From an uncultured Halieaceae bacterium (lineage in GTDB: Bacteria; Pseudomonadota; Gammaproteobacteria; Pseudomonadales; Halieaceae), in assembly GCA_913056165.1 (NCBI GenBank), contig CAJXMD010000002.1, positions 7,676-71,675 on the forward strand: 64,000 bases of DNA, given 5' to 3'. The translations under genes were made by a program, and so were the position numbers. The first letter of the stretch is position 1. Each line of letters begins with the position of its first letter. Below are positions 29,652 to 45,586 of the stretch, one piece after another. The notes under the pieces were generated by a model. It did not search any database, was not told the DNA's origin, and worked only from the letters and a program-made list of their open reading frames with translations.

Positions 29652-29687
29652 GGCGGGTCCCAAGTAAAAGCGTGCTCGAAGTGTTAC

Positions 29688-31115
29688 TTATTGAATGGTT
29701 TTAATCCAGTCGCCGATACGGGGCTCGCCGCTGGGATAGTAGCCATTGATCAGCCGGAGCTGGTCCTCGGCGTCGGGGATGCGCGCGCTCGAAGAAAGGC
29801 TGTTTAGAGTCGCTCCGCGGGGCACTTGTACATAGTGCAGGTTGCGGCTCTCGCCTTTAACTTTTTCCCGTGCGGCGAGTGGTCTGAAGCTCTCAATGAT
29901 GGTCAGCAGGTTGGCATCCCCCGATGCGATGTCGGGGGTTTCTCCAGTAAAGAGAAAACGATAGCGATGATCGATAACCGCCAGACGTTTACTGACCCCA
30001 TTGCCCGACGCAATGGCCGTGCTTCCCTTCAAACCAAATTGGTCGAGCTCAGCCTGATTGGTGAGCTCACCAGTCGCTTGTGTTGTTAAAAAATCATTGG
30101 GCGCTACGGCAGGATCGACTTTGGACAGGGACAGGGTGACCTTTTCACTTCCATCAGCAGAAGTTGCGACGATCGAGCGGGACCCTTGCTGCACCGTCCA
30201 ACCCTCGGGATAGCTAAAGGAAAAGTCGAGCTTGTTGTGATAGAAACGATTGGGTTCCGCTTGGGCTTGAGCACTGGCCCCAAAAACCAGGCCCTCTACC
30301 TGAGAGCGGAAGGCACCGGGTAATTCGGGGTCCTCGGGCTGATTGTCCAGATCAAGATTGTTGGCGGTTTTCACCACGGTTTGAAGTCGAAGGTCATTGC
30401 GGGGGTGGCTGGCATAGAGACCGTGATAGGTGCCCACCGGCTTACCCGATGATTTTGCCTGAACACGTCGAAACATCTCCTGGTCTTTCAGCACGCCAAT
30501 GACCGAGAGCAGGGCGTCCGCATCGTAGCCGCTTCTATGCATAAACTCGGCACCGGCGGCATCCGCCTCCAGCTCCATATCGCGCCCAAAGCCGCTGATG
30601 ACTTCGGCGCCGACCATGCGGGCAGCATCATAGACGTCGCCGCTCCCTGTCAAAATGTAGGCTGTTGTCGCGAGTATGGTGGAGGTGGTCGACTGAGTTT
30701 TGCGTCTGCTGTGATGCCGCTCGGTGATGTGACCAATTTCATGAGCAATGACGCCCGCCAGCTCGGCCTCGGTTTCCAGGTAGGCCAGCAACCCACGGTT
30801 GATGTAGATGTAGCCGCCAGGCAGGGCGAAGGCGTTGATATCGGGAGAGTCCAGTACGGTAAAACTAAAATGCGCATCGGGCATCGACGAATTGGCTACC
30901 AGTCGCTGGCCGATGTCGTTGATGTAGGCGGCGAGCTCGGGATCGTCATAGACACCAATGGCCTCGATCATTTCCCGATACTCTTCGGGGGTGTCCTCGG
31001 GAAGATCAACCTGTCTGCCACCGACGGTGACTGTGGGCGAGGCAGCGTTCGCCGCCAGCGAGCCAGTTAACAGCAGGCTTGCAATGAGACGACAGGCATG
31101 AAGTCGAGAAAACAT
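29688..31115 (-). CDS. M48-family metalloprotease with C-terminal LysM-like segment
   Basis: Signal peptide, NAFALPGG, HEIGH, ELEAD, SHP; start moved to ATG 31115. Confidence 0.9.
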   Translation of the reverse strand: MFSRLHACRLIASLLLTGSLAANAASPTVTVGGRQVDLPEDTPEEYREMIEAIGVYDDPELAAYINDIGQRLVANSSMPDAHFSFTVLDSPDINAFALPGGYIYINRGLLAYLETEAELAGVIAHEIGHITERHHSRRKTQSTTSTILATTAYILTGSGDVYDAARMVGAEVISGFGRDMELEADAAGAEFMHRSGYDADALLSVIGVLKDQEMFRRVQAKSSGKPVGTYHGLYASHPRNDLRLQTVVKTANNLDLDNQPEDPELPGAFRSQVEGLVFGASAQAQAEPNRFYHNKLDFSFSYPEGWTVQQGSRSIVATSADGSEKVTLSLSKVDPAVAPNDFLTTQATGELTNQAELDQFGLKGSTAIASGNGVSKRLAVIDHRYRFLFTGETPDIASGDANLLTIIESFRPLAAREKVKGESRNLHYVQVPRGATLNSLSSSARIPDAEDQLRLINGYYPSGEPRIGDWIKTIQ

Positions 31116-31131
31116 GGCGAGGGGAGCGTGC

Positions 31132-31839
31132 TTACCGAGTGGCCGAGAGATAATCGAGCAACTGATCCCCGAGGCTGTCACAGGCGGTACCTTGCACGGG
31201 TGCAATGATCGGGATGGGTACTACGACTGCGGGCATATAACTCTGGCCGCTGGTGTTGGCGCTGATTCGGCCGACCTCGGTTTGATCGGTAAAATCCCAG
31301 ATAGTTGCCTCGTAGTCGGACGCGTTGCCCCAGGTGCCAAAACCGAAGCAGCCAGCGCCACCGGGGCCGACGCCGCAGGTCATTGAGCCCGAGCTATTGG
31401 TTTCGATGGTCGAGCCATCTATCCAGATCATGTACTCCAATTTGATATCAGTGAACTGATTGGCCACCGGTTCCTGCATCAGCAGTCGATCGATGTCCTG
31501 AGGTCGCAGGGGCGCGGTACGTGGCTCAAACCAGGGGTACATCATGTTGATGAACTCAAGTTCGTGTAACACGGTGATGGAGTTGTCACCTCGACGAATG
31601 TGATCGCCTATGCATTCAATAAAATCGAACTCGGTTTCGTAATCGGGTGCATGGCGTCGGCCCAGTATGACGACCGAGGAATCTCCAATTCCCTCGGTGG
31701 GTTCAAGAAAGGTCATCTCATCGACAGTCGCGGTGACACAGCCTTGAAGAAACAGGAATAAAAGAACCAGCGCGGACCCGTAGCCTAGGGATCGCCTATT
31801 CCCTGTGGGGTGGCGGGATGTCGTGAGAGTGCGATTCAC
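31132..31839 (-). CDS. Hypothetical lipoprotein
   Basis: Lipobox LQGC; GTGA overlap with the upstream gene. Confidence 0.8.
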   Translation of the reverse strand: MNRTLTTSRHPTGNRRSLGYGSALVLLFLFLQGCVTATVDEMTFLEPTEGIGDSSVVILGRRHAPDYETEFDFIECIGDHIRRGDNSITVLHELEFINMMYPWFEPRTAPLRPQDIDRLLMQEPVANQFTDIKLEYMIWIDGSTIETNSSGSMTCGVGPGGAGCFGFGTWGNASDYEATIWDFTDQTEVGRISANTSGQSYMPAVVVPIPIIAPVQGTACDSLGDQLLDYLSATR

Positions 31840-32585
31840 GAAGAAGCTCCCTCGGGTTCATCAGGGGTACCGCTACTGTCACCATTTAATGCTGCTGCGG
31901 GAACCTCCGTGATAGCGTTGCGTGTTTCCAGCCACTCGATCACCGCTGGGACCCGGTGAAAGGAAGTCGCGAAATTGGCGCCCGCATCTCGCAGTGCTAC
32001 CACCGCAGCCAGGTTTACCGCCTCTTCATCCGACTGCAGGAATGCAGTGGGTGTTTTGCCGTAAGCGCTCAGTGTCCAGTCGGCGATGCTCTGATTCGGG
32101 TCGTAGGTCAGTTCGCCGTCGCTGTGCTCGTGAATGGCGTCAGTGGTGACCAGACGAAATCGGTACTTCATCCAGATTTCATACACCTTGACGTTGGTGT
32201 GTAGCGGAATGGTGTACTGCAGGTCTTCGACGTAGGGAATAATCACGGCGTCGATGTCCTGCTCGACAGCGTGCAGGGCGTCATGGCTATCGATATGGAC
32301 GATGTTCGTGAACATGCCGCCTAACAGCGTGTCCCAGAATTCAACTTGGGCATCGCCAGTTTTCACCAGCCAGTCGGTTTCCTCGCGCCCGGCCGCTTCA
32401 TCGTAAATCTCGTGGTTGGCGAAGCTCTCGGTATAGACCACGCCGAGGGTAAGCGGCGTTTGCTCCATGAGAGGTTTCGGAAAATTACCCTGAACCACCA
32501 CCTGCTTTGCCCCGCAGGCAGCCAAAAAAAGAGCAACGGCTGCAGCAGCAGTGAGTCGGATGGTGCGATTAGGGCCTGAAATCAT
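31836..32585 (-). CDS. Hypothetical lipoprotein
   Basis: Lipobox LAAC; probable start ATG 32585 overlapping the upstream stop. Confidence 0.8.
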   Translation of the reverse strand: MISGPNRTIRLTAAAAVALFLAACGAKQVVVQGNFPKPLMEQTPLTLGVVYTESFANHEIYDEAAGREETDWLVKTGDAQVEFWDTLLGGMFTNIVHIDSHDALHAVEQDIDAVIIPYVEDLQYTIPLHTNVKVYEIWMKYRFRLVTTDAIHEHSDGELTYDPNQSIADWTLSAYGKTPTAFLQSDEEAVNLAAVVALRDAGANFATSFHRVPAVIEWLETRNAITEVPAAALNGDSSGTPDEPEGASS

Positions 32586-33567
32586 TGAGTCCAACGAAGG
32601 TGCCACCATTTCGATAGGTCAGTTCTCGCATCAGTGTAGCAAAACGAACCCCGGTAGTTTGTAGTTGGGGGGGGCGAATAAACTGGACAGGAAACCCGAC
32701 AGCGTGGATTCGCACCCGTCTTTCACCGTCAAAATTGTCGGCATTGAGCTGATCTACTGTCTGAACCACGCTGCGAATGGAGTCGCCGGTGAATTCATCA
32801 CCAAACACGTAAATAGATATTTTTTTGTTGGGGTCATAGAAGGTACGCACCGCTGCAGTAATACCCTCGACCGGGGAGCTATTGGAAAAGACGTTCCAGT
32901 TGGCGAGATTTCGCAAAATGAGACTGCGCCGGGCAGGGGTATCGGGTATCCACTGACTCCGATAGCGGGAAAACAGATAGTTCCCCATATCGTTTAATAC
33001 CTGAATTCCTTTGACTTCCGGGTAAATGTTGAGCGTGGCCTCCATCTCTTTAAGCATGCGCTCCCAGGCGTAAGAAAACATCGAGCCGGAGGTGTCGATA
33101 ATGAAAATGATGTACTCGCTGTCGACTGGAATCCCCCCAATCAATTGATTTTTCTTTTCACTGTTAATGCCCAGCAGTCGTTTTTCTTCTTCGCTTAACT
33201 GCTGTCGGGCGATGGCGAGTTGTTGCTGAACAATGCTGTTGGTGTTGCGCGTAGTCTCAAGGGCGTCAAAGCGTGACTGAGCTTTTGCCAGCGCTCCTTG
33301 GAGGATGGCTATGCGCTCTTTGTACTGTGATATTTGTTCCTGCTTGGCATCTAACTCACGATTTAAAATTGTGGTTTCTCCCCGAATCTCGAACAGTTGC
33401 TCGGTGAGTTCAGCGACTTTGCCGTCGGCCACGATCGTGGATTTCTCCAGAATCTGTGGTTGCACGGTTTTTGTGATCATTAAAAGCAGAATGACCGCGC
33501 CGAAACCACAGCAGATAACGTCCAGAAAGGAGATCGAAAATTCAGGAGTGCCCCGTCGCTGCCTCAT
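32569..33567 (-). CDS. Single-pass TM + coiled-coil + VWA domain protein (paralog 2)
   Basis: SFLDVICCGFGAVILLLMI TM segment, heptad-rich stalk, IFIIDTSGSM MIDAS; ATGA overlap. Confidence 0.85.
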   Translation of the reverse strand: MRQRRGTPEFSISFLDVICCGFGAVILLLMITKTVQPQILEKSTIVADGKVAELTEQLFEIRGETTILNRELDAKQEQISQYKERIAILQGALAKAQSRFDALETTRNTNSIVQQQLAIARQQLSEEEKRLLGINSEKKNQLIGGIPVDSEYIIFIIDTSGSMFSYAWERMLKEMEATLNIYPEVKGIQVLNDMGNYLFSRYRSQWIPDTPARRSLILRNLANWNVFSNSSPVEGITAAVRTFYDPNKKISIYVFGDEFTGDSIRSVVQTVDQLNADNFDGERRVRIHAVGFPVQFIRPPQLQTTGVRFATLMRELTYRNGGTFVGLNDFRP

Positions 33568-34655
33568 GGCCAATCCCTCGAGGGCGACATAAATGAGCCG
33601 CCCGTTACTTGCGCCAACTGCCAGTATTCAGATGCCGCCATCGGATCACCTTCCATGGGGGCGAGGATAATATTAACCGGCACACCCGCCGGCAGCCGCC
33701 GAACCGCCGACCTGAATAGCTCGAGTCGGTCCCGTCCCGAGATCGTTGTTTTTCGTGGCGGGGCATCTCCCTGTGTGGGTAAACCATCGGTGATCAGAAA
33801 AATATTGTCCGGCCCTCCCGGTAGCGCCGCCACCGCATCAAAGGCCTTATGCAGGCTGGTTCCACCGGAGGGTAGCTGTTGGCGCAGGGCATCGGTCGCG
33901 CTTTTCAATAACTCCCCATCTGCGACGTCGAGCCAGCGGTTTTTCTTGTCTTCGAGAACTGAGTTGGCTTCGGTATTAAAGGCAATGATTTGAAACTGCG
34001 CATTGATGGGTAGCTGCGCAGTGAGCCAGTCGACCGTATTCAGCGTGCGAACCCACTTGGGGGCGGTTTGCTGAAGCTCGGCGTCCATGTTTCTAAGCCG
34101 GATGACATTGACAATACTGTCAGCAAGCATGCTCGCGGAGGCATCTACGAGAATAACGATGCGGCTACCTCCGAGGTTTAAGCCCGTCAGATACTGACGG
34201 TTGCCCACCCCCACGTACTCACGAGCACTTCGACCCGCCTGCGCTTCGGCGGCTTCCTTAAGTTTTTCCACTCGCTCCTCGAGTCGGTTAATTTCAGCTT
34301 TCAGAGCCTCCACATCCTGATCTTCACTCAGGCCGCTTTCTTCAAGGGACGCAATAAGCGCTTCGTAATTGTCGAGCTCTTCGGTCACCCGGGTTGCTAA
34401 CCCCTGAGCTTCAACGATATCCAGATCAGCACTGGTGAGCGCGTTGCGAAGACGGACGAGACCGGCCTCGCCCTCCCGGATGTCCTCTTCCAGCAGGTCG
34501 ATTTCCGCAAACACCTCGGCGTTGACGGTTCGACTCTCAATTTCCATCGAGTGATCGATGATAAGGAACACCAAGACCACCGCCCCGAAACCACAGGACA
34601 TAATGTCCAGAAAACTGAGGTTGAAGGTCGATGTCTGCCGCTTACGTCGAGTCAA
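33564..34655 (-). CDS. Single-pass TM + coiled-coil + VWA domain protein (paralog 1)
   Basis: SFLDIMSCGFGAVVLVFLII TM segment, coiled coil, LVDASASM...GGT...ITDGLP MIDAS; TTG start with GAGGAG RBS. Confidence 0.87.
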   Translation of the reverse strand: MTRRKRQTSTFNLSFLDIMSCGFGAVVLVFLIIDHSMEIESRTVNAEVFAEIDLLEEDIREGEAGLVRLRNALTSADLDIVEAQGLATRVTEELDNYEALIASLEESGLSEDQDVEALKAEINRLEERVEKLKEAAEAQAGRSAREYVGVGNRQYLTGLNLGGSRIVILVDASASMLADSIVNVIRLRNMDAELQQTAPKWVRTLNTVDWLTAQLPINAQFQIIAFNTEANSVLEDKKNRWLDVADGELLKSATDALRQQLPSGGTSLHKAFDAVAALPGGPDNIFLITDGLPTQGDAPPRKTTISGRDRLELFRSAVRRLPAGVPVNIILAPMEGDPMAASEYWQLAQVTGGSFMSPSRDWP

Positions 34656-34658
34656 CCA

Positions 34659-35918
34659 TTACTCCTCGACGGCGATGAGCTGCGCGTTGAATCCCATGGC
34701 ATCGGTGATGACATCACCGACAGTGAAAACATGGCCAGCCTCAGCTGCCCTGCCGTTGATGTTGAGGTCCTGAGGGATGGGTGCGGCAAGTATGATCGAT
34801 GTGCCCTGCTGCTCGAGTTGAATCTCCTGTGGCGAGAGTGCGCCCGGTGTAAAGGCTTTGGCGATGCCGCCGCTCACCCAGTGGGTGGGTCGGGGGAGCG
34901 GGTTTGACTCGTGAGATTCTGTGGCGGGAGCAGGACTCTCGGTCTGGGGTGCCACCCGGGAGTTGGTGGATTCTGCGGGTACCCGACGCTGAAGCACCAG
35001 CGCATCCGGCGCTTGCCGCAGACTGTCGGCAAATTTTAGTGTGGTGGTGACGATAGCGCCGTTGTCGATGCCTGCCGCAGAGCTATCCATGACCAATCCG
35101 GGCAGCTGATCGAGGGGCGATTCCAGCAGTATCGGTGAGTCTGCATCCAGCAGCGGTTGAAGCGCGTTCGCGTAGGCGGCGCCAACGCAAGCCAGATCCT
35201 CCTGAGTTACCCGGACGTCATAGCCATTGATCGACATGTGCGCCTCACCTTGGGCTTTCAGGGTGGCGAGGAAGACCGGGAGTTGGTCGTACAGGGTCTG
35301 CTCTCCGTCCGCGGATCGAAGCGGATCAAAACGGGTTTGATCCACAAAAGCGCCAGCAATACTGTTGGCCAAGCGATCCTGCAGAGCGAGCAGTCCCTCA
35401 CCCGGCAATGCCTGAGAGTTTGTTGCGGCCACGTGACCATCGGAGACCTGAAACTGGGTGACCAAGGTCTGGTGTAGCTGAAGTTCAACGTGCAGTCCCT
35501 GTCCCATGCCGCTGGCGCTACCGAGCAGCGCGGATCGGTGAATCAATCCGTCGATAGAAAAGGGGAGGTGTTCCACAATACCTAGCAGGAGTGACAGCTG
35601 CTCGCGCGTAAAGCTCCCGGGCACGGTGAGTAGGACACGATCGGGTCGATTGGCTTCCTCGTAAAGGGTCTGAAGATGTTCATGGGCTAGATCCGCTGTG
35701 TGTCGTGCCTTGCCGAGAGGGGGCGCCAGTGGCGCGGTGCCCAGCTGCGACCAAAAGCGCGTGTTGACCTCGCGAGGGGTGCGTCGTTGGGTGCGCAAGG
35801 CCGCTATCCCGAAACGAAATTGCTTGCCATCGAACCAGGCGTATCCCGGGGATTCGATGTCCGTGTCGCCTCGCCAGATTTTTAGCGCGGTGTCGTGGAG
35901 GTCTAGAACAGCCGTCAT
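34659..35918 (-). CDS. Cytoplasmic protein resembling a degenerate Hsp70/actin-fold domain plus FHA-like C-terminus
   Basis: Colinear by-eye similarity to the DnaK NBD (LLTVPGSF vs VITVPAYF etc.); LNING...GDVI tail; ATGA overlap. Confidence 0.65.
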   Translation of the reverse strand: [419 protein letters not shown]

Positions 35919-36718
35919 GATCTCGGTACTGCAAGGTGGCGAAGGAGTTTGCGATCGATGTACCGCTGGGTGCTAAGGACGAGGCGCTCTTGGGAGAGTT
36001 GCAGCTGGTGTAAGGCAAACATGATGATGATCGATAGAACCAGCGCGACAAAGGTGCTGTTGAAGGCAACCCCCAAACTCACGGTGACCCCCGAGATATC
36101 GCCTTCCACTGCCTTATAGGCTTGTCCCAGCGCGTCACCGATACCCCGTACGGTGCCGATAAACCCGATGGAGGGGATGGCCCAAGAGATATATCGCACC
36201 ATGGAAAGTTCCGAATCCAGTCGGTCTGCTTCGATGTCGCACTGTTCTCGCACGGACTCGGATACCGCGGGGATCGACTGGGTCGTCGCAAAACGTTGGA
36301 GCGCATTCATAAGCGCTCGTGGCAGCAAAAAATCCTGCTCTTCTTCAGGGAGAGCTTCCAGAGCCCGCGCGTAGTCTCTTGAGTCTTGCGGCAGCAGGCT
36401 GGTGCCGGTGGGAACATCCATTAGATTGCGCCCCAGCATTCCCTGCTCAAGTCGGGTGCGATGGGCCTTGAGTCCCATGATCGCCAGAGCCCAAAACAGC
36501 AGGATAAAACATGCCTCCTGCTCAAAATCCCGGATGACGATGGCAAGTGTTCGCTGTGCTTCCACCGCCTCCCCGGCAGCCTGCAGGGCGGCCTGCGCGG
36601 CGAGTTGTGCTTCGGCGGTGGGGCGAATGAGTCCGATATAGACGCCGTGCACCACGATGACCGCAAGAAGCAGGGCAAAAACCTGATAGAGAAATTCGTT
36701 ATTGATACGCAAAGGCAT
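35915..36718 (-). CDS. MotA/TolQ/ExbB proton-channel family protein
   Basis: WAIPSIGFIGTVRGI and LGVAFNSTFVAL TM motifs; two additional N-terminal TM helices. Confidence 0.92.
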   Translation of the reverse strand: MPLRINNEFLYQVFALLLAVIVVHGVYIGLIRPTAEAQLAAQAALQAAGEAVEAQRTLAIVIRDFEQEACFILLFWALAIMGLKAHRTRLEQGMLGRNLMDVPTGTSLLPQDSRDYARALEALPEEEQDFLLPRALMNALQRFATTQSIPAVSESVREQCDIEADRLDSELSMVRYISWAIPSIGFIGTVRGIGDALGQAYKAVEGDISGVTVSLGVAFNSTFVALVLSIIIMFALHQLQLSQERLVLSTQRYIDRKLLRHLAVPRS

Positions 36719-36732
36719 AGTAGAGATCCTGC

Positions 36733-37041
36733 TTATATATCAACGGGGAAGGATACCGAGCTGTCCTCGGAGATCGTCTCGCTGGGAATGTAGTCCAGAG
36801 TGGGTCGTGCGGTTGGGTTCACCTCAAGGGGCGCCTCTTCTTCCCGCTCCGGAGCAGCCACTTGAGAGGACTCGGATTCGGTAGCCGGTTCTGGGAGGGT
36901 TGATTCCTGTGCCTCGAGGCCAGCAGACACCAGCCCTGCGGCCAGGGCTAAACTACCTAGCATCACTGCCACAGGCGCTTTATAGCCGGCACGGCTTTCC
37001 TTGTCCTGTGACGCTATCTTTCTGGTGAGCTTATTCTGCAT
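36733..37041 (-). CDS. Small exported acidic protein
   Basis: Hydrophobic signal segment, low-complexity linker, C-terminal YIPSETISEDSSVSFPVDI; overlaps the upstream stop. Confidence 0.75.
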   Translation of the reverse strand: MQNKLTRKIASQDKESRAGYKAPVAVMLGSLALAAGLVSAGLEAQESTLPEPATESESSQVAAPEREEEAPLEVNPTARPTLDYIPSETISEDSSVSFPVDI

Positions 37042-39154
37042 AGCGCGCTATCCTGAAACCCAAGTCGTCCCTGCCCGCGGCTCCATAATCACGGTAGGTG
37101 AGCCGAAGTTCCGCCAGTCGACTCAGCGCCCAGCTTGCGCCTCTGACGGTGTAGTTGTCTCCGTTCACACTGCCCAGCGGGTCGGTGGCGAGTTCTGCAT
37201 TGGCAGATGGAATCACGTAAACATCGTGAACCCATTCCGCCACGTTACCCCCCATATCGTACAGGCCCCGGTGGTTGGGCGGAAAGCTCGCCACTGGCGC
37301 TGCCACGATATGACCGTCCGCGTACCCGTTGAGGATACGGCCGGTCACCAAGGCAGAGGTATTGTCTGCTACGTTCACCACGGGCGCACTGGGTGGGAAT
37401 TCCTCACCCCAGGCAAATTTCCGATAGCCCTCGCCCTCGATCCGAGCCGCGTAAGACCATTCGGCCTCAGTGGGTAGGCGATAGCCGGTGCTGGATGCGT
37501 TGTAACCCCGGATAATGCCTTCGCTCTCTCGATAGAAAGGCGGTAGCCCCTCCTTAGCGCTCAGCCAGTTACAGAACCGGGCTGCCTGTTGCCAGCTGAT
37601 CTGGGCCACTGGCTGATGCTCCCGATTGAGGCTATTGCCCTCAATTTGCCCGCTGCTATGGCTTTCCAGAAACTGTCTGAACTGGGCGTTAGTGGTCTCT
37701 GTTGTTGCCAAGTAAAAAGCGCGTTCGAGTTTTACCGTGTGCAGCACTTCATTGGAGCGCCGTCCCGGCTCTCGCCGCGATGCCCCCATGGAGAACTCAT
37801 TCATGGGTTCGGCGATCGGATCGATGAGCACCAGCGTTTGTCCCAACGGCGACACAATCTCGGGTTTGATCGCTGCCTTGCGGGCTTCTGCCTCGGTAAG
37901 CAGAGCGATATCCACGACCTGCTCCAGGCCTTCGCGGGGCGTGACCTGCAACCGCTCGCTGGCATAGCCTGGTGCCCGAATTTCAACCCGCTGGGTTACC
38001 GCGGGGAGGGCGAGTGTCTGATCTCCACGACCCATCACCGTGCCATTCACCAGAAGCTCAGCGCTCGACGGCTGAACACGAAAAGTGACGTCACCCAGCC
38101 GGGGAGTCAGGGTGACGTCCCGGGTTGCGGTATCACCGCGTGCCAGTTCGAGGGTTAACCGGGCACGCTGATAGCCGGATTTTGTGAGTTGTATGCTGTG
38201 AGTCTCATCGGGTGTGAGTTCAATCTCCAGCGGTGTTCGTCCCTCGAAGGTGCCATCCACCGCCACCGCGGCGCCCGTCGGTGTAGACGTGAGTGAAAGC
38301 ACACCGGCAGAGGGTTTCAGTTGGACGGGCCCGATCTCCTGCGGCACACCCGCCACTACAGTGAGTTCAACTGGGGCATCCACATACCCGTTGGCGCGAA
38401 TAACCAGCTCGCGCTCGCCGCTCATGACTTCAATTGGCGTGCCGGCATTTCCTATCGGTTCTCCATCCAGCCATACGCTGGCGTCTTCTGGTGTCGAGGT
38501 AATCAGTATGTCAGCCCAGTCGGGTTCGAGGTCGACGCTAAGTGTCTGCTCGATCCCCCGGCCGGTAACATCGATGGTGGTGTCTCGCTCGATATAGCGG
38601 GGCAGCGAAAACCTCAATGTCCCGGACCCGGCGGGCAGCGAGAGACGCTGCAACGGTGTGACGCCGATAGCAACCTCGTCTAAAAAAACCTCGGCTCCAG
38701 CCGGCGCGGATTCGATCGTGACCCATCCCGGTTTGATGGCGGGACTGATATCCAGGCGCTGGCTCTCTGCGTCGCCAACGGTGATCGTGTCCTCGAAATC
38801 TTCGTAGCCGGCCACCTTTACTACCAGTTCGTACTCGCCGCTTCGAAGTAGGTATCTGGGACCGATAGGGATCGCGATGCCTGACAGGCTTATGTCAGCT
38901 GTTCCAATAGCATCCACGACGATGTCCAGTGAGCGGGCGGTGAGTAGAAAAAACAGCGCGTAGATAACGATGGCGCCGCCTACACCACCGACCAATAGAG
39001 GCCATCGTCGAACTCCCTCTGATGGACCGGTGGTGCTGAGAGGTTCAAAGGCCGTCGGACTGAGCGGCCCGTCTGACTGGCCGGGCTGCTGTGATGCGGG
39101 CATTGGGCTAAAACCATCCGCCTTCAGGGGCTTGTCGTCCTCGTTCATGGGCAT
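37031..39154 (-). CDS. TM-anchored multi-PEGA + FGE-sulfatase (SUMF1-like) domain protein
   Basis: Repeated (I/L)xSxPxGAxVx(L/V)D PEGA units; FSMG, YRLPTEAEW, GLYDMGGNVAEW, GFR motifs. Confidence 0.9.
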   Translation of the reverse strand: MPMNEDDKPLKADGFSPMPASQQPGQSDGPLSPTAFEPLSTTGPSEGVRRWPLLVGGVGGAIVIYALFFLLTARSLDIVVDAIGTADISLSGIAIPIGPRYLLRSGEYELVVKVAGYEDFEDTITVGDAESQRLDISPAIKPGWVTIESAPAGAEVFLDEVAIGVTPLQRLSLPAGSGTLRFSLPRYIERDTTIDVTGRGIEQTLSVDLEPDWADILITSTPEDASVWLDGEPIGNAGTPIEVMSGERELVIRANGYVDAPVELTVVAGVPQEIGPVQLKPSAGVLSLTSTPTGAAVAVDGTFEGRTPLEIELTPDETHSIQLTKSGYQRARLTLELARGDTATRDVTLTPRLGDVTFRVQPSSAELLVNGTVMGRGDQTLALPAVTQRVEIRAPGYASERLQVTPREGLEQVVDIALLTEAEARKAAIKPEIVSPLGQTLVLIDPIAEPMNEFSMGASRREPGRRSNEVLHTVKLERAFYLATTETTNAQFRQFLESHSSGQIEGNSLNREHQPVAQISWQQAARFCNWLSAKEGLPPFYRESEGIIRGYNASSTGYRLPTEAEWSYAARIEGEGYRKFAWGEEFPPSAPVVNVADNTSALVTGRILNGYADGHIVAAPVASFPPNHRGLYDMGGNVAEWVHDVYVIPSANAELATDPLGSVNGDNYTVRGASWALSRLAELRLTYRDYGAAGRDDLGFRIARYAE

Positions 39155-40677
39155 CAGATACTCTCCGTGCAGCGGACGTCGACCGCGCCTTTTTGTCCCG
39201 GTTTCACGCTGAAGGAAACCCGAACATCACGGAAGCCTGTCCGCACCCCCATGGCGACGTAGTCACCCGGTCGGAGCGTTAAATTCTGTTCGCTGAATGC
39301 GCCAAGCCGGCGAACCCGCAGGAGAGTCACATCGGTCTGACCATCGGATGTCACGTTTACCTCCACGGGGGTGCGGGCATAGTTGAGTGCCGCCGAAATC
39401 GCCTGAATTTGCCCCGAGAGAACAGGGCCCGGTGCGCTAATGGCTTGCGCCTGTTGCAGGGTGGCTTCCGCCTCGGCCAGTACCCGTCGGTCTACTAACC
39501 GCTCTTGTTCATCGAGAATGGTTTGCAGCGCTGTTGCCAAGGCAGCCCGGGGCTTCACCCGGTCAAGTCCCTGTTGGGCGAATACCAGCGTAGGATCGGT
39601 GGCCAGTGCTTCCTCGTAAGTATCGAGAGCCCCTTGCCAGTCTTCCGCACGCTCTTTTTGTTCCCCTGTCTGAGCCAGTGCTCGCAAGGTGGCATCTGTC
39701 TTGGCCTCAGATAACTCGGTTTCGGCGGCTTGCACCTCGGCTGATGTGGGACGCAGCTGCCGAGCCTTCTGGAAGGCCGCCGCCGCCCCTTCAAAGTTTT
39801 CCTGATCAAGCAGGTCATAGCCCCTTGTCATCGCCTGGCGAAATCGTTGGTCTGCATCCTGCTGTTGGAAGGTCGCGAGCATGTCACCTGCTCGTTGATG
39901 ATCCGGATCGGCACTGACCGCCCGTTTGGTTGCATCAATGGCAGCTGAGAGATCATTTTGATCGGCTGCTTCAATCGCCGCGTCCAGTGCTTTAGACACC
40001 TCGGGTATAACAGCCACTCTTGCGCGTAGCGTGTCCCGATCCAGATCATTTGGTGAGAGCAACACCAGCAAATCCAAATTTGCTGTGGCGTCGAGTTGGT
40101 TGCCCTCTTCAATGGCGTTCAGGGTGGCCGCTCGCGCGTCAGCGATTCGTGCTGGCACGCTGTCTTCAAGGGTGACCAGTGCATCTCCCGCATTTAAATA
40201 AGCGGTTGCTGCCTCGGTAAAATCCCCGTTCCGGTAGGCCTCATCCCCCGACATCGCCGTTGCTATAGTGGCCTGATAGGCATTGGGTGCCCAGCGCTCC
40301 ACCCCAAGATCTTGCAGTATCTCCTGAAGTTCAAGCACCCGCTGCAAGGCATCCTGCGCGGCTTTGCGCGCCTGTTGCCGTTGTGCCTCGGCAAAGGGAC
40401 TGCGCTCCACCGGCGCTTGCGCTGACGCCGCTGACCCGACGCTCCCCGATGCACTCGAATCGGTGGCGGGGGACATTGACGACTGTGTCTCAGGCGTTGA
40501 TGGGTCACCCACCAACAGAGGGAGCAGTACGAAAACACAGACTGCGACAACGCCCAGCGTGAGAATACCGGGCACCAACCACGGGGGTCGTTGCCCGGCG
40601 TCCGTCGACTCATTAACGGTGTCGGTTTGTGGGGAGAAGGCGGTCGGGTTGAGGGGTTTGTCGGTGCTATCGCTCAC
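39154..40677 (-). CDS. TM-anchored TPR-like helical protein with C-terminal PEGA-like domain
   Basis: N-terminal TM helix, Ala-rich TPR-like repeats, SDGQTDV...LRPGDY...GFRDVR tail. Confidence 0.78.
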   Translation of the reverse strand: MSDSTDKPLNPTAFSPQTDTVNESTDAGQRPPWLVPGILTLGVVAVCVFVLLPLLVGDPSTPETQSSMSPATDSSASGSVGSAASAQAPVERSPFAEAQRQQARKAAQDALQRVLELQEILQDLGVERWAPNAYQATIATAMSGDEAYRNGDFTEAATAYLNAGDALVTLEDSVPARIADARAATLNAIEEGNQLDATANLDLLVLLSPNDLDRDTLRARVAVIPEVSKALDAAIEAADQNDLSAAIDATKRAVSADPDHQRAGDMLATFQQQDADQRFRQAMTRGYDLLDQENFEGAAAAFQKARQLRPTSAEVQAAETELSEAKTDATLRALAQTGEQKERAEDWQGALDTYEEALATDPTLVFAQQGLDRVKPRAALATALQTILDEQERLVDRRVLAEAEATLQQAQAISAPGPVLSGQIQAISAALNYARTPVEVNVTSDGQTDVTLLRVRRLGAFSEQNLTLRPGDYVAMGVRTGFRDVRVSFSVKPGQKGAVDVRCTESI

Positions 40678-40698
40678 GGAAGTGATGTCCTGAAAGTC

Positions 40699-40729
40699 GG
40701 TCAGTGCCCCAGTTGCCGGGGCTCTGGCC
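40699..40729 (-). other. Intercistronic GC-rich hairpin (possible weak terminator or mRNA stabiliser)
   Basis: Minus strand GGCCAG-A-GCCCC / 7-nt loop / GGGGC-A-CTGACC, followed by GACTTT. Confidence 0.4.
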
Positions 40730-41998
40730 TCATTGTCCCGAATTTAACCCGTCGACGGAACTGTCAGGCTCGGTCTGCGCTGATTCAGGACTCGTTAGGC
40801 CGCCAGTACTGCTACCCCTCATATTGGGTTCTTCCCTCTGCAGCTCTCCCATCTCTGCGGCGTAGAGATCCGCCATCAACTCTCGCCACTGGCTGTACTG
40901 ATCCTCGGCGCTACCCGACAGCCGCACGGTACGATCCTCAAGTTCAATGACCCGGGGTGTAATTTCAGCTTGCAGCGACTGCCCAAGCTCTTCGATAGCC
41001 AGGGAATGGATGCTGGACTCCGCCCGTTTTTCCAAGCCGCTCTTCAGCAAATAGCCACCGCCAGCAATGCCCACTGCCCCGGCGGTTCGGGCATAGCTGC
41101 TACTCGAGCCCTGAGCGGCAATACCTGCCACGACGGCCGCGGCGCCGGCAATTAATCGCTGGTTGGCTTCTTGTTGTAGCTCCCTTTGAGCAATCACTTC
41201 GTCATAACTCAGCTTGCGCCATTCTTGGTAGGGCGTATACATCTCTTCCGAGAAACCATCGTAGTGACCCTGCAAGGTGTCCACGAAGACGTAATTTCGC
41301 TGTCGAAGATTGCGCACACGCTCAAGCATGGGGTCATCCTCAGCTGGTAAACGCCTCAATTGATATTCGCCATCCTTGTCCTCTTGAAGATAATCGGCAA
41401 AGGCATTTTCAGCGAATGCTCTTGCGAACCTGAGTTCAGCGACCTGGCGAATCGTTACGCGCTCTTTTGAAGTGGATGCGTTGAACTTGTCGAGCATGTC
41501 ATTGGCAATCAGTCGGTAAACCAGCAGGAAGGGGTCCTGATTCGTGGCAGCGCGTTGGTCATAGGCATAGCGACTGGTTGTGCCCTCGTAGGTCTTGTCA
41601 ATCCAGACTGCTCCGGTGGCGTCTGTGACTATCACAGCTAATGCCAGTCGCTCACCATCACTGTGAGCGATACGCCCGGTGACTAACAGGTCAGTGAACT
41701 GCTTGTCGTCAGGGACGACTCGAACCGCACCCCAGGCGCCGACCCCCTCCAGCACCTGGGCAAGTTCTCTCGCGATAAAGGTAGCCTCCGCTCGACGAAT
41801 TTCGGGATACACCTGATCATCATCAGTCAGGCTGTCGATGCCCGGGTCGAGAATCGCAACCCCCACGTCCAGCACTTCATTTTCTGGCACAAGTTGTTGG
41901 GGTTGCTCCAGCGCAGGCACCGAGGTGCTCTTGACGGTTTGACTGACGCAGCCAGCGAGGACGAGCGCACCGAGCAATATCGTAAGTGTGCGCATCAT
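40730..41998 (-). CDS. Hypothetical lipoprotein with glycine-zipper-like segment
   Basis: Lipobox LAGC; LIAGAAAVVAGIAA...AGAVGIAGGGYLL. Confidence 0.82.
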   Translation of the reverse strand: MMRTLTILLGALVLAGCVSQTVKSTSVPALEQPQQLVPENEVLDVGVAILDPGIDSLTDDDQVYPEIRRAEATFIARELAQVLEGVGAWGAVRVVPDDKQFTDLLVTGRIAHSDGERLALAVIVTDATGAVWIDKTYEGTTSRYAYDQRAATNQDPFLLVYRLIANDMLDKFNASTSKERVTIRQVAELRFARAFAENAFADYLQEDKDGEYQLRRLPAEDDPMLERVRNLRQRNYVFVDTLQGHYDGFSEEMYTPYQEWRKLSYDEVIAQRELQQEANQRLIAGAAAVVAGIAAQGSSSSYARTAGAVGIAGGGYLLKSGLEKRAESSIHSLAIEELGQSLQAEITPRVIELEDRTVRLSGSAEDQYSQWRELMADLYAAEMGELQREEPNMRGSSTGGLTSPESAQTEPDSSVDGLNSGQ

Positions 41999-43128
41999 GA
42001 CTGCGGGATCTCCAATCCTTTGTATTTACGGTATTCATTCCAAAGACGCTCCCGAACCTTGGGATCGGGTTCGCGCATGGCAGCCTCCCGCAGCTGACGG
42101 GCAACGACATCGTCATTGCTGCCATCGGGGATATCGTCAGGGGCCTTATAAATAGCAGGATTATCAGGCGGTGCGCCACCACCCCGTGATGCACCCCCCA
42201 TGCCGCCACCTGTAGAGCTTCCACCCCCCATGGCCACGTCGTCGTTATAGGGATTACGACCGCTGGTGCCGGCGCCGGCGGGCTCGGGTTGCTCGCGCTG
42301 GGCATTTCGGTTGGCACGCTCTCGTGCCTCTTCGCGCTGGCGCTGTTGCTCCTCGAGGATCATCGCATCGAAATCACTGGTGCTTTGTTCCAGCTGGCGA
42401 TCGAGAATGGCCACTTGCTCCGCCGTGGTCATAATGTCGCTACCGCTAGCCACCCCCTCCATGCCGCCATCCGCACGAGTGCCGGGACCGCTGGGGGATG
42501 CATTCTCAGTGCCGGCGGGGGATCCTCCACTCTCGCCATTGCCGCCGTCGGCATCCGCCACCCCGGAGGCTGAGTCGGTGCCATCACCACCGCCGTAGCT
42601 TTCTTCAAAAGTGGGTAGCTCGTCACGCATATCGGGCAGCGCATCAGCCCCCGCGATATCACCGAAACCCGGTTCGCTGCTGTCGCCCATGCTCTCTGAG
42701 CCACTCTCGCTACCAGAGTTCGCGGCTCCCGGATCTTGTGTGCTCGAGCCAGTATCCGCGGTCGGCATACCGCCCTCATCTTGAGTCGATTCCCCGGCCC
42801 CGGAACTTGCAGATGGGGAGGGGAAACCACCTCCGGTCGGCATGGATTGGCCACCGCTGGACCCGCCCGATGACGAAGCGCTTGACTGACTGCCAGATGC
42901 GCTCGAGGAACTGCTACTGGCGCTGCTGCTCGATGAGGAGGATGACGAACTTGAAGAAGGCGATGAGGATGAAGACGAAGACGAGGGCGTTGACGGCGTC
43001 GTCGGCATGCTCGGCGTCGTTGGCGTACTGGCGCTTGGACACCCTGACAACAAAATAAGCACGCCCAACAGAGCGATCATCTTGGTAATCCGGATGGTGA
43101 AGCGGCTATTCATAAAGTCTTCTTTCAT
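41995..43128 (-). CDS. Ser/Gly-rich disordered lipoprotein with short helical C-terminal module
   Basis: Lipobox LSGC, poly-Ser tracts, C-terminal DDVVARQLREAAMREPDP..RERLWNEYRKYK. Confidence 0.8.
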   Translation of the reverse strand: MKEDFMNSRFTIRITKMIALLGVLILLSGCPSASTPTTPSMPTTPSTPSSSSSSSSPSSSSSSSSSSSSASSSSSSASGSQSSASSSGGSSGGQSMPTGGGFPSPSASSGAGESTQDEGGMPTADTGSSTQDPGAANSGSESGSESMGDSSEPGFGDIAGADALPDMRDELPTFEESYGGGDGTDSASGVADADGGNGESGGSPAGTENASPSGPGTRADGGMEGVASGSDIMTTAEQVAILDRQLEQSTSDFDAMILEEQQRQREEARERANRNAQREQPEPAGAGTSGRNPYNDDVAMGGGSSTGGGMGGASRGGGAPPDNPAIYKAPDDIPDGSNDDVVARQLREAAMREPDPKVRERLWNEYRKYKGLEIPQS

Positions 43129-43135
43129 GTCCTTT

Positions 43136-44482
43136 TCAGTCCAGTAACACAGTTTCCGGATCCCAGGCCGTTGCGCTAAAGGACCAGATCAGCCCCTCGG
43201 AAGCCACTGGCTGGGAGCCGTCAAAGCCGGGCCTGAAGCGCGTGTCTTTCAGCGTGCGTACCAGTCGGCGTACGGCTTTGTCGTCCTCAAGTTCGGGACG
43301 CAGCAATTCCTCAAACTCCTTCACCCGCCCCGTTTCGGTGACGCTGAATGACACTGCAAGCGGCCCCTGATCGCTGTTCATGTAGGGGGGTAGGGGATCG
43401 AGGCTCTCAATAGCTGGCAGTGGTACTGGTTGGGCAAAAAATCGCGCCATTAGTTCCGGTTGCTCGCCTCCCTCGATCAGTCCCATCGCGGTTGCGTAGT
43501 GAATTTCCGCCTCTGAAAACTTGCCAAACCACATCGCCCAGTCCCCGAGGGCGACGGTGTCCTGCGCGTGTTGCTCCAGAGATACCTCATTGGCTGTGTC
43601 CAGCTCGAGTAGTGCATTCAACACCGCTACTCCCCGTTTGTAGGCGGTGCTGGTAAGCCCGGCAAGCTGCGCATCACTATCCTTGGATGCCTTGTAATAG
43701 GGGTAGCCACGATGCCCTGCAAAGAGGTACTGGGAGGTCAGCATGCCCATGAGCGGGCGCCGCAACTGAGGCGCCGAGTTGCCGTGGATCTCGATCATCT
43801 CGGTGAGCGCCAAGCGGTAGAGGTCCCAGGTCACCATGAGTCGCCCCATCTGGGTTTCAGGATCCCCGACCCGCATGAGGAAAGCCTGCTGTTGCCACTG
43901 AGCTTGTCGCATCAGGGCCTCTGCGGAGTCTGACCGATTGGCGAGAGAGCGTCGCTCAACGCGGTAGAGATAACGTTGCCGTTCATCGACCTGATCAAAT
44001 TGTCCCATCGCCATGTGACTTCTGATCTCGCTGCGCAGCAGCGCCAGCTGTTCCCCCGAATAAAGGCCATTATTGATGCGGGCGATATGCGCGCCGCGCT
44101 TGAGTACATCGATAGCTTCTTCATGACGATTGAGCTGTTGCAAGGCAGTGCCCAGTCCGAGCAGCTGTTCTGTCATGCCAGGAGAATAGGCACCACCCAG
44201 TCGCTCCTGCGCCTCAATCGCCGCCTGGTATTCGAGGACTAATGACGATTCGGCCACCGGCTCCGGCGAAGGCCTTGCGTCGAGGCTGTTGCGCATGTCG
44301 ATCACGACGGCATCGGCGGGATTGTCAGCGGTGGTTTCCGGGGTGGGCCTTGCGGTTGGATCGGACTCAATCGGGTCGCTGTTCTCTACCTGTGCGACCG
44401 AGCCAATGCTAAGACTGCACAACAGCGCCAGAACAAGCCCGGGGAGGAGGTGTCTAGGTCCTTTTGTTAAGTGTGCGCGCAT
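43136..44482 (-). CDS. Exported TPR-like protein with TonB C-terminal-like domain
   Basis: Signal peptide, TPR-like helices, VSFSVTETGRV...TRFRP...PV TonB_C pattern; probable start ATG 44482. Confidence 0.75.
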   Translation of the reverse strand: MRAHLTKGPRHLLPGLVLALLCSLSIGSVAQVENSDPIESDPTARPTPETTADNPADAVVIDMRNSLDARPSPEPVAESSLVLEYQAAIEAQERLGGAYSPGMTEQLLGLGTALQQLNRHEEAIDVLKRGAHIARINNGLYSGEQLALLRSEIRSHMAMGQFDQVDERQRYLYRVERRSLANRSDSAEALMRQAQWQQQAFLMRVGDPETQMGRLMVTWDLYRLALTEMIEIHGNSAPQLRRPLMGMLTSQYLFAGHRGYPYYKASKDSDAQLAGLTSTAYKRGVAVLNALLELDTANEVSLEQHAQDTVALGDWAMWFGKFSEAEIHYATAMGLIEGGEQPELMARFFAQPVPLPAIESLDPLPPYMNSDQGPLAVSFSVTETGRVKEFEELLRPELEDDKAVRRLVRTLKDTRFRPGFDGSQPVASEGLIWSFSATAWDPETVLLD

Positions 44483-44779: not shown

Positions 44780-45586
44780 GTGGGACAGTTTGAGACAGAT
44801 ACGGCGGTCACAAAAATCGCGGACAACCGTTGGACGGCAACCTGTCAGCGAGGCTGGCGGATCGGCTCGACGATGAATGGGGGATATGTGCTTTCCTTGA
44901 TGGCTCGCGCGCTACGGGAAGCACTGCCCCATCGGGACCCCCTTTCGATTAACGCCTTTTATTTTTCGCCCTGTGTCTTGGGTGAGTGCGAGATCGAGGT
45001 GGAGACTCTCAAGGAAAACCGGGGGACGAGTTTTGGTTCTGCGAGTTTGTTCCAAGATGGTGAGCTGAAGGTGCGAGCCACTGCCGCCTATACGGATATT
45101 GATCGACTTCAGGGCGAAACCTGGATTAACAACACGCCACCTGCGGTGCCTGCGTTTGAGGATTGTGCTCATAGCAGTGCCCATTCTCTGGAGATCCACG
45201 AGCGAGTGGACATGCGATTGATCGAGGGGCAGGGCGTATTCACCGGCGAGCCGCCCTCCAAATCGGGGGAGTTTGTCGCATGGTTGCAGCACCGCGATGG
45301 CGCTGCCAGTGACACTATCGACCTTGCGATGTGGGCTGACATCATGCCGCCACCACCCTTCACTCTGTTTGGTCCTTTCGGTTGGGTGCCGACCATCGAG
45401 CTGACGGTTCAGTGTCGCAAAAAGCCCGCGCCCGGCCCCGTTATCGGGCGACTGACCTCCCGCCATCTCACCAACGGGATTATCGAGTCAGACAGTGATC
45501 TTTGGGACAGCGACGGTCAGCTCATCGGGCTCGCTCGTCAGACCATGAAGGTGAAGTTACCGAGCAACCCTCAATCCCGGAGATGA
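44780..45586 (+). CDS. Acyl-CoA thioesterase family (double hot-dog fold)
   Basis: WRIGSTMNGGY, WVPTIELTV, LWDSDGQLIGLARQ. Confidence 0.88.
   Translation: MGQFETDTAVTKIADNRWTATCQRGWRIGSTMNGGYVLSLMARALREALPHRDPLSINAFYFSPCVLGECEIEVETLKENRGTSFGSASLFQDGELKVRATAAYTDIDRLQGETWINNTPPAVPAFEDCAHSSAHSLEIHERVDMRLIEGQGVFTGEPPSKSGEFVAWLQHRDGAASDTIDLAMWADIMPPPPFTLFGPFGWVPTIELTVQCRKKPAPGPVIGRLTSRHLTNGIIESDSDLWDSDGQLIGLARQTMKVKLPSNPQSRR

Follow-up and report, generated by a model that had tools for sequence, protein, structure and literature searches.

We analyzed a 64,000-nucleotide stretch of DNA (the window) from an uncultured Halieaceae bacterium (GCA_913056165.1, contig CAJXMD010000002.1, positions 7,676 to 71,675) and found that a gene cluster at window positions 29688-44482 very probably encodes a membrane motor, in which a TolQ-like subunit (g7) works with two Asp-bearing partners that carry vWA heads (g9 and g10). 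The cluster holds 13 minus-strand open reading frames (ORFs), numbered from g1 (from 44482) to g13. Comparison of loci across genomes indicates that the Gammaproteobacterial core consists of eight genes, g2, g3, g4, g5, g6, g7, g9 and g10, while g1, g8, g11, g12 and g13 appear to be add-ons and the set of 13 the Halieaceae version. We tentatively propose that the products of the eight genes assemble into an ion-driven machine that exerts force on the outer membrane as part of routine envelope upkeep, and we regard this as a serious possibility rather than a firm assignment. The core genes, the motor triad first, are as follows, where MIDAS denotes the metal ion-dependent adhesion site.

g7, 35915..36718, minus strand: TolQ-like motor subunit in which T189 and T222 are invariant, with an extra N-terminal helix that carries His24
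g9, 33564..34655, minus strand: trans-pore helix bearing Asp17, then a stalk predicted as coiled coil and a vWA head whose MIDAS is intact
g10, 32569..33567, minus strand: g9 paralogue bearing Asp16, likewise with a stalk and a vWA head whose MIDAS is intact
g2, 41995..43128, minus strand: lipoprotein (lipobox LSGC), long Ser/Gly-rich linker, C-terminal helical motif led by Asp-Asp
g3, 40730..41998, minus strand: predicted outer-membrane lipoprotein, TolB_N/CsgG/PelC/PqiC-type domain and a long hairpin of helices whose tip is hydrophobic and rich in Gly/Ala
g4, 39154..40677, minus strand: inner-membrane anchor (transmembrane residues 38-56), TPR-like helical rod, C-terminal PEGA-like domain
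g5, 37031..39154, minus strand: anchored in the inner membrane, with four to five PEGA repeats and an FGE-fold head devoid of the catalytic cysteines
g6, 36733..37041, minus strand: predicted secreted micro-protein ending in FPVDI; its start may be 36966

The motor subunit g7 matches the Pfam family MotA_ExbB (E 4.9e-14), and its structural model reached a pLDDT of 94. Model comparison placed residues 53-267 closest to TolQ (Z 14.9, root-mean-square deviation (rmsd) 3.8, 205 aligned residues), followed by ExbB (Z 13.3), ZorA (Z 10.7) and MotA/PomA (Z at most 9.8); GldL is not among the fold matches listed, and this does not exclude it. T189 and T222 are invariant in 32/32 g7 sequences and align to the threonines of TolQ. 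Glu173 of TolQ is not kept, the aligned position being Val217, and the TolQ equivalog model TIGR02796 gave 26.2 bits against a cut-off of 221. The extra helix spans residues 7-47 and carries His24 in 31 of the 32 sequences. Since TonB and TolA dock on their motor via a His-bearing helix (PMC12204202; here and below, articles given by PMC number are cited from the parts of their text accessible to us), this helix may, by analogy, fill their docking site.

The vWA domain of g9 is a direct Pfam match, and that of g10 was found by profile only. Comparison of the two profiles gave 99.9% probability at 19% identity, and against integrin I-domains g10 reached E 0.026 at best. The trans-pore Asp is conserved throughout (g9 D17 in 61/61 sequences, g10 D16 in 42/42), and the MIDAS residues are intact in 60/61 and 61/61 sequences, respectively. 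Both proteins start with a helix of the form FLDxxCGFGA, whose Cys, four residues past the Asp, is also invariant; it corresponds to Cys21 of g9 (window 34595-34593) and Cys20 of g10 (window 33510-33508). Together with Cys70 of g7, present in 31/32 sequences, these residues might possibly form an intramembrane disulfide or serve redox control. The span from helix to head has a median of 124 residues in g9 and 111 residues in g10; such stalks resemble coiled coil and, if helical, would extend up to ~15-18 nm. OmpA-domain proteins are encoded right after g10 at two unrelated loci (L128:2600-4756 and L131:15595-16332), where they could act as a peptidoglycan anchor. A second, more distant system combines in one run (L156:1523-10976, genome G278) genes for a kinase-Sel1 protein, a Sel1 protein, a TolQ-like protein, FHA, PP2C, two trypsin-FHA proteins and a vWA protein.

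The first-pass annotation of this stretch had stated that the locus lacks a canonical ExbD/TolR partner. This was borne out by a motif pattern that recovers all 3 ExbD-family genes of the own genome and found 0 ORFs in 115 cluster loci. Each of these three genes lies beside its own ExbB/TolQ gene, and the remaining MotA has a MotB neighbour. A canonical ExbD partner recruited from elsewhere is disfavoured, because the other four MotA/ExbB genes have ExbD-family or MotB neighbours of their own. The motA gene just mentioned (C7:16778-20201, L003) is followed by motB (Pfam MotB_plug and OmpA) and then by a second long motB-like ORF. FlgI was not found in this genome (86.7% complete) despite the motA-motB pair, which possibly represents orphan stators or reflects an assembly gap.

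These features place the motor core in a computationally predicted family. Williams-Jones et al. (Mol Biol Evol 2025, PMC12204202) described in silico a 'second family' of TolQ-like motors, TPH-vWA, whose function is not stated in the accessible text. Six features of this family can be tested in sequence, and all of them were found in the g7-g9-g10 triad: linkage of the tolQ homologue to vWA genes, no syntenic tolR, exbD or motB, a trans-pore Asp, no SHLS motif (S-x3-H; 0/100 and 0/107 helices of the vWA proteins), a heterologous pair of membrane-tethered vWA proteins and a Thr ring. Membership is assigned here by these six sequence features. Its accessible text names no partner genes and has 0 occurrences of PEGA, and Fig. 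4c or the Zenodo files may show neighbours. Neither the MIDAS nor the His-bearing extra helix appears in this text, nor do the lipoprotein, the peptide and the variants with a kinase or g8. A literature search, with subscription papers outside its coverage, found the triad prediction but nothing on the partner genes or a phenotype. A 2026 review of Ton and Tol systems (PMC12905483) does not mention vWA in its accessible text, and PMC7159879, as far as accessible, proved unrelated to the system. In the literature searched, neither the assembly of eight genes nor its function appears to have been described. The earlier description of the locus as an undescribed system is only partly right, because the TPH-vWA prediction already covers the motor triad; it appears to stand for the partners and the function. 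The 2025 paper left the function of TPH-vWA motors open, and the present locus provides a parts list of eight core genes with their invariant residues.

A g7-based fetch returned 80 loci, 39 of them full length (Halieaceae). In 37 of these 39 all 13 genes lie in order on one strand, and the remaining two each lack one match. This conservation of order is more than chance, and the reading as a distinct, syntenic ion-motor locus is supported. Within the family, g7 is present in 148/151 genomes, with two copies in 2 only. We also used a class-wide sample of 400 Gammaproteobacterial genomes, in which the g9 profile matched 39. One of these matches was spurious (G135, E 1.4e-4, no cluster) and was dropped; the unpublished genome G037 was counted only in this tally and in that of g3/g9 co-occurrence. 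In a phylum sample, 7 of 11 positives came from one family outside Gammaproteobacteria. With a limit of E 1e-30, the g9 profile matched 572 clusters (50% identity), a number that includes fragments and g10 paralogues.

The distinction between core and add-ons comes from a divergent set of 35 g9 loci in 34 of the 37 other carrier genomes. Core genes were found as follows: g10 in 34 loci, g7 in 33, g5 in 32, g4 in 27, g3 in 26 and g2 in 22. The counts for the add-ons were 18 for g8, 8 for g11 and g12, 6 for g1 and 4 for an M48 protease gene (the family of g13). Misses of core genes fall mostly at contig ends or in split clusters, and at four loci an unrecognised ORF sits in the place of g2. In two of the 35 cases (G175 and G265) g7 lies outside the operon, elsewhere in the genome. 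The two vWA genes are adjacent in 34/35 loci, the exception being at a contig end. All g3-positive genomes among the 400 have g9 (35/35), and g3 occurs in 0/362 genomes without a true g9; three g9 carriers have no g3 match, two of them fragmented and 92-93% complete. The first-pass annotation's unit of 13 genes therefore holds for Halieaceae, whereas the unit conserved across Gammaproteobacteria appears to be the eight-gene core.

In a tree of g10, a compact subtype without g8 splits from an extended subtype (support 91/93). The compact group contains Methylophaga-like genomes with the outside-class family nested among them, and this nesting suggests transfer. One genome (G162) carries both subtypes, extended and compact (loci L133 and L149). 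Among named organisms, a g9 homologue comes from Methylophaga frappieri, and cultured carriers are Luminiphilus syltensis, Parahaliea mediterranea and Seongchinamella unica. Cultured hosts of the system are therefore known; g7 is 97-100% identical to the Luminiphilus loci, which leads us to regard the host of this stretch as a Luminiphilus.

The partners of the motor span the envelope. In g2, at least 2 Asp stand ahead of an ARQ motif in 79/89 loci. Lipoproteins are sorted by an Asp at position +2, and g3 is predicted to reside in the outer membrane because it is a lipoprotein without this residue. A PDB profile search found no sequence relative of g3. Its model (pLDDT 85.5) gave fold matches of the domain to the flagellar LPHT ring chain (Z 10.6), PelC (Z 9.5; rmsd 2.3 over 108 residues), TolB_N (Z 8.9) and CsgG (Z 8.9). 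These Z values are moderate, yet the top matches agree on a single predicted fold. The hydrophobic hairpin tip is present in 55/56 sequences. The own genome also encodes a stand-alone g3 paralogue (C3:5838-6965, L171; E 8e-64) without the hydrophobic tip and with no motor nearby; the ORF before it, lipoprotein-like and 231 residues long, has no Pfam match. For g4, Pfam detected TPR_2 in 43/53 members and PEGA in 0/53, and hhalign related its C-terminal domain to a PEGA repeat of g5 (95.4%). The PEGA and FGE domains of g5 are direct Pfam matches. Aligned to human FGE, g5 has neither catalytic Cys, and the GldK model TIGR03525 scored 103.5 bits where 350 are needed. FHA domains in N-terminal extensions of g5 are not claimed, as Pfam detected none.

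These parts could also build an export machine, in which g3 hairpins would form an outer-membrane channel and rotating vWA heads would push or pull a protein or polymer, in the manner of type IX secretion (T9SS). The resemblance of g3 to both CsgG and PelC and the conserved hydrophobic hairpin fit this idea, as does a small secreted partner, g6, that we take to be reminiscent of CsgF. The FGE fold of g5 is that of PorK/GldK (E 1e-26), and the PorLM motor turns the PorK/PorN ring (PMC12635249). The FGE head of g5 is tethered to the inner membrane, unlike the lipoprotein PorK, no cargo gene recurs near the loci, and the FPxDI ending of g6 is not a shared signal. We consider export unlikely on balance, though it is the strongest competitor of envelope upkeep.

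The micro-protein g6 is the smallest part of the core. An ending of the type PxD/N-I/M straight after g5 was found in 114/115 loci (P in 114/114, D in 112/114 and I in 113/114), and the only locus that missed the pattern, L153, was recovered by a hidden Markov model. In the compact subtype g6 is reduced to a signal peptide and ~15 residues. Integrin MIDAS sites are completed by a carboxylate of the ligand, and g6 is a candidate MIDAS ligand, for which the chemistry points to the MIDAS and the linkage points to g5. Indeed, g6 stays beside g5 in four rearranged loci (L125, L132, L134 and L166), and it accompanies g5, not g9/g10, when the cluster splits (L166 versus L128). Two loci with an Asp-to-Asn exchange in g6 keep their MIDAS residues unchanged. 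Both observations weaken the idea that g6 is the ligand, and a compensating change between g6 and the MIDAS was rejected, as none was seen. FPxDI as a general sorting signal was also rejected, since among 26,029 ORFs of the own genome only g6 and three short doubtful ORFs carry it. A complex prediction with the g5 FGE head, both vWA domains and, as the partner, the last 35 residues of g6 scored 0.70, 0.71 and 0.72, compared with 0.00 and 0.00 in controls with the partner replaced and 0.74 with g5 replaced, and provides no evidence for or against binding.

The five add-on genes are:

g1, 43136..44482, minus strand: signal peptide, TPR repeats and C-terminal TonB_C; predicted periplasmic
g8, 34659..35918, minus strand: cytoplasmic protein with a degenerate Hsp70-type nucleotide-binding fold and a weakly supported FHA-like domain
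g11, 31836..32609, minus strand: lipoprotein (lipobox LAAC); its start may be 32585
g12, 31132..31839, minus strand: lipoprotein, possibly of CT253/CsgG type (a lead only)
g13, 29688..31118, minus strand: M48 zinc protease with intact HEIGH; its longest ORF starts at 31205

The cytoplasmic protein g8 matches the Hsp70 fold with E 5.8e-4, with GGT replaced by LHQ, and several FHA structures at a weak E of 0.19-0.99. The earlier domain calls stood for MotA_ExbB, VWA, PEGA, FGE, TPR, M48, TonB_C and the Hsp70 fold, and were weak for FHA on g8. Direct Pfam matches exist for g7, g9, g5, g4 and g13, while TonB_C of g1, g8, the vWA domain of g10 and PEGA of g4 needed profiles. A short motif, [ILV]xPxx[FYW], occurs in the cytoplasmic tails of g4/g5 in 13/17 divergent loci with g8 and 0/16 without it; its background is 0/470 windows, it was defined after looking, the related loci are not independent and the g8-less loci belong to few clades. 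At three loci in three genomes (L131, L135 and L167) an N-terminal cytoplasmic Ser/Thr kinase is fused to g4; the statement that the system has no kinase is thus right for this locus, whose g4 has none, and does not extend to those genomes.

The tail motif that tracks g8 and the kinase fused to g4 have suggested to us an envelope sensor, in which the vWA heads would fix the axle to outer-membrane partners, the pentamer would turn or gate, and the state would be relayed via the g4 kinase, FHA and g8. P. aeruginosa detects damage to its membrane through an outer-membrane lipoprotein, an FGE protein and a kinase (PMC13713981), and TagQ-TagR-PpkA-Fha1 would be the model. The compact subtype, however, lacks g8, has short tails and keeps the whole periplasmic core, from which we conclude that signalling is optional. 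The limits of the motif given above also count against a sensor, and VipB, a marker of type VI secretion (T6SS), was found in 0/5 carriers tested, four of them 99-100% complete and the fifth the own genome. We therefore judge a dedicated sensor to be distinctly unlikely.

The TPR repeats of g1 were detected in 30/36 members, that of the own g1 lying below the Pfam cut-off, and TonB_C matches 2k9k with E 2e-8 (Pfam 3/36 members). A stand-alone g1 paralogue lies elsewhere in the genome (C43:14728-16068, L172; E 2e-24), and similar lone copies occur near L120, L125 and L135. The TonB_C domain raises the idea of TonB-independent uptake of scarce nutrients, in which the vWA heads or g1 would energise transporters encoded elsewhere; that carriers include small-genome bacteria and that the named relatives are largely marine would suit it. 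But most loci lack g1, their surroundings show no recurring TonB-dependent receptor, and the own genome has separate ExbB-ExbD genes, all of which leaves uptake improbable.

The lipoprotein gene g11 always occurs with g12, in 8/35 divergent loci. In a PDB profile search g11 had only implausible Hsp70 matches (E 0.02) and no credible fold, and g12 had no match; the Atlas neighbours of g12, at 0.93, share only 154-157 of 256 features. Comparing g11 with g12 and g3 with g12, hhalign aligned signal peptides only. The protease g13 is a clear M48 member (Pfam E 2e-35), and the BepA model gave 111.9 bits against a cut-off of 570.

We propose the following mechanism. Family knowledge predicts that five g7 subunits would surround the helices of g9 and g10 and that ions would pass Asp17/Asp16 and the T189/T222 ring. 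Stalks of ~110-125 residues would bring the vWA heads over most of the width of the periplasm, and g4 and g5 would serve as struts that extend about as far. A ring of g3 would lie beneath the outer membrane, into which its hydrophobic hairpin would insert. The g9/g10 axle would then turn relative to the g7 pentamer. More speculatively, the MIDAS would grip acidic motifs of a partner, for which the Asp-Asp of g2 and the Asp-Ile end of g6 are candidates. In an equally speculative last step, rotation would pull or reposition outer-membrane components by direct drive, as in GldLM/PorLM, with no side TonB/TolA. The protein g8, and the kinase where present, may provide optional cytoplasmic control.

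Envelope upkeep is the job that we favour for this machine, because it is near-universal in the family, is retained in small genomes and has no VipB, PADLOC or plasmid match. The presence pattern looks like housekeeping. Five small genomes (1.6-2.0 Mb) keep the system, with TolB in 5/5 and FlgI in 0/5; FlgI was found in 3 of five other carriers, so the system does not track flagella. The linked M48 protease, a relative of BepA (Halieaceae and 4/35 other loci), further favours upkeep, as does a scan of 79 proteins from the loci and their surroundings, in which neither a cargo gene nor an outer-membrane barrel recurred.

The resemblance of g7 to ZorA (Z 10.7) could also suggest anti-phage defence of the Zorya type. 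PADLOC matched 0/13 cluster proteins, the cluster has a fixed chromosomal position and is near-universal in the family, and there is neither an effector gene nor a plasmid copy; defence is accordingly a far-fetched explanation. Two viral contigs matched, the better one through a lone g7 homologue (L179:7488-8336, 52%), which lies beside a Na+/H+ antiporter among phage tail/baseplate genes and has no vWA partners. A mobile origin was rejected, as plasmid searches returned no match and only 2 viral contigs were found.

Surface adhesion or gliding, with the motor moving or retracting an adhesin as in Agl-Glt, was considered as well. The heterodimeric plug parallels AglR5-Q-S (PMC11761067), gliding has been suggested for the first vWA family (PMC12204202), vWA domains can mediate adhesion, and the locus has TPR, TonB_C and FHA-like parts. 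But the vWA heads are tethered to the inner membrane and not surface-exposed, the loci encode no outer-membrane barrel or adhesin, TonB_C (6/35) and g8 (18/35) are dispensable, and the system occurs in very small genomes and in nearly all genomes of a family whose abundance in coastal seawater has been described (PMC10100682). For these reasons we think such a role very doubtful. We know of no gliding in the carrier groups. The first-pass annotation had offered motility/adhesion, export and envelope remodelling as possible functions, and of these three surface motility is the least favoured.

Several observations weigh against envelope upkeep and explain why we propose it only tentatively. The system is patchy, with 38/400 class genomes and 11/301 phylum genomes positive, and the link to M48 is limited to Halieaceae and the 4/35 other loci. 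As Tol-Pal is present alongside it, the system is not the sole envelope motor. One complete genome (G265, 100%) has the motor and no g3 match. Finally, the g3 fold is also that of the export channels CsgG and PelC, and a shared fold shows no function.

The layout of the cluster agrees with the earlier description of 13 co-oriented genes with a largest gap of 52 nt and four lipoproteins: all ORFs are present on the minus strand, and four lipoboxes were found. With preferred starts, inferred as ATG 33567 for g10, ATG 32585 for g11 and ATG 31118 for g13, the 12 junctions from g1 to g13 measure 7, -4, 52, -1, -11, 14, -4, 3, -4, -17, -4 and 13 nt. The GC content of the cluster resembles that of the remainder of the window. 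Metatranscriptome contigs of relatives span most bins of the locus (4 of 23 listed runs); strand and transcript identity cannot be read from contigs, and DNA carry-over is possible because one contig spans the divergent region upstream of g1. A promoter scan gave 4 sites where 6.3 are expected by chance, and 27 terminator-like sites (14.4 by chance) mark no clear operon end. Downstream, after a gap of ~39 nt, lies an amidohydrolase gene on the same strand (window 27939-29663), and upstream a divergent thioesterase gene (window 44780-45586); both flank the cluster in many Halieaceae. Flanking genes scanned at divergent loci belong to other families, and the amidohydrolase and thioesterase were not specifically searched there.

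The locus belongs to none of the Tol, Ton, Agl-Glt, T9SS, T6SS and Zorya systems, in agreement with the first-pass annotation as far as it compared them (Agl-Glt, Gld/T9SS, T6SS sensing, Tol and Ton). With TolQ-TolR-TolA and ExbB-ExbD-TonB it shares the motor fold and the Thr/Asp chemistry, whereas its plugs have long stalks and vWA heads, g7 has the extra N-terminal helix and does not keep Glu173 of TolQ, and TolA, TolB, Pal and a receptor are absent from the locus. The own tolQ-tolR pair is located on contig C30, and the ORFs after it look tolA- and tolB-like when read by eye. No ExbD is encoded in the locus, and TonB_C of g1 lies near only 6/35 divergent loci, which sets it apart from Ton. 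With Myxococcus Agl-Glt it has in common a pentamer with two different plugs and a vocabulary of TPR, TonB_C, FHA and vWA domains. AglQ/S, however, have TolR-like periplasmic domains, GltG joins FHA, transmembrane segment and TonB_C in one chain, and the vWA protein CglB is a surface adhesin on barrels; here the vWA heads sit on the plugs, and the FHA-like domain and TonB_C on separate optional genes. No GltA/B/H barrel or adhesin is among the 13 cluster genes, to which this search was confined. P. aeruginosa TagQ-TagR-PpkA-Fha1 likewise has an outer-membrane lipoprotein, a non-catalytic FGE protein and a membrane kinase, the last found here in some genomes only. That system has no ion motor, and this locus has no T6SS marker and no kinase; presumably TagQ also has a glycine zipper and PpkA a vWA domain. 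Zorya ZorAB belongs to the same 5:2 motor family, but the plugs described here have no OmpA domain, g7 has no long cytoplasmic tail, and the cluster has no effectors and is not mobile.

The closest working analogy is to GldLM/PorLM with GldKN/PorKN, where the dimer of a 5:2 motor spans the periplasm to work on a structure of lipoproteins beneath the outer membrane, with an FGE-fold protein involved. The differences are that the motor here is of TolQ type, the FGE head stands on an inner-membrane stalk, the locus has no translocon and g5 falls below the GldK cut-off. Beside Mot, Ton, Tol, Gld, Agl and Zorya, the system may represent a further class of ion-driven trans-envelope machine, a reading we put forward with some reserve: a direct-drive TolQ-type motor whose rotating integrin-like heads would hold on to a tether peptide and act on a ring or channel of alpha-helices in the outer membrane. 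In abundant marine bacteria it would count as a core organelle with a job in export or membrane remodelling, and the secreted 15-residue peptide would serve as ligand or pawl. If true, this would be a new coupling of ion flow to the outer membrane, with metal-dependent adhesion domains as a rotating grip.

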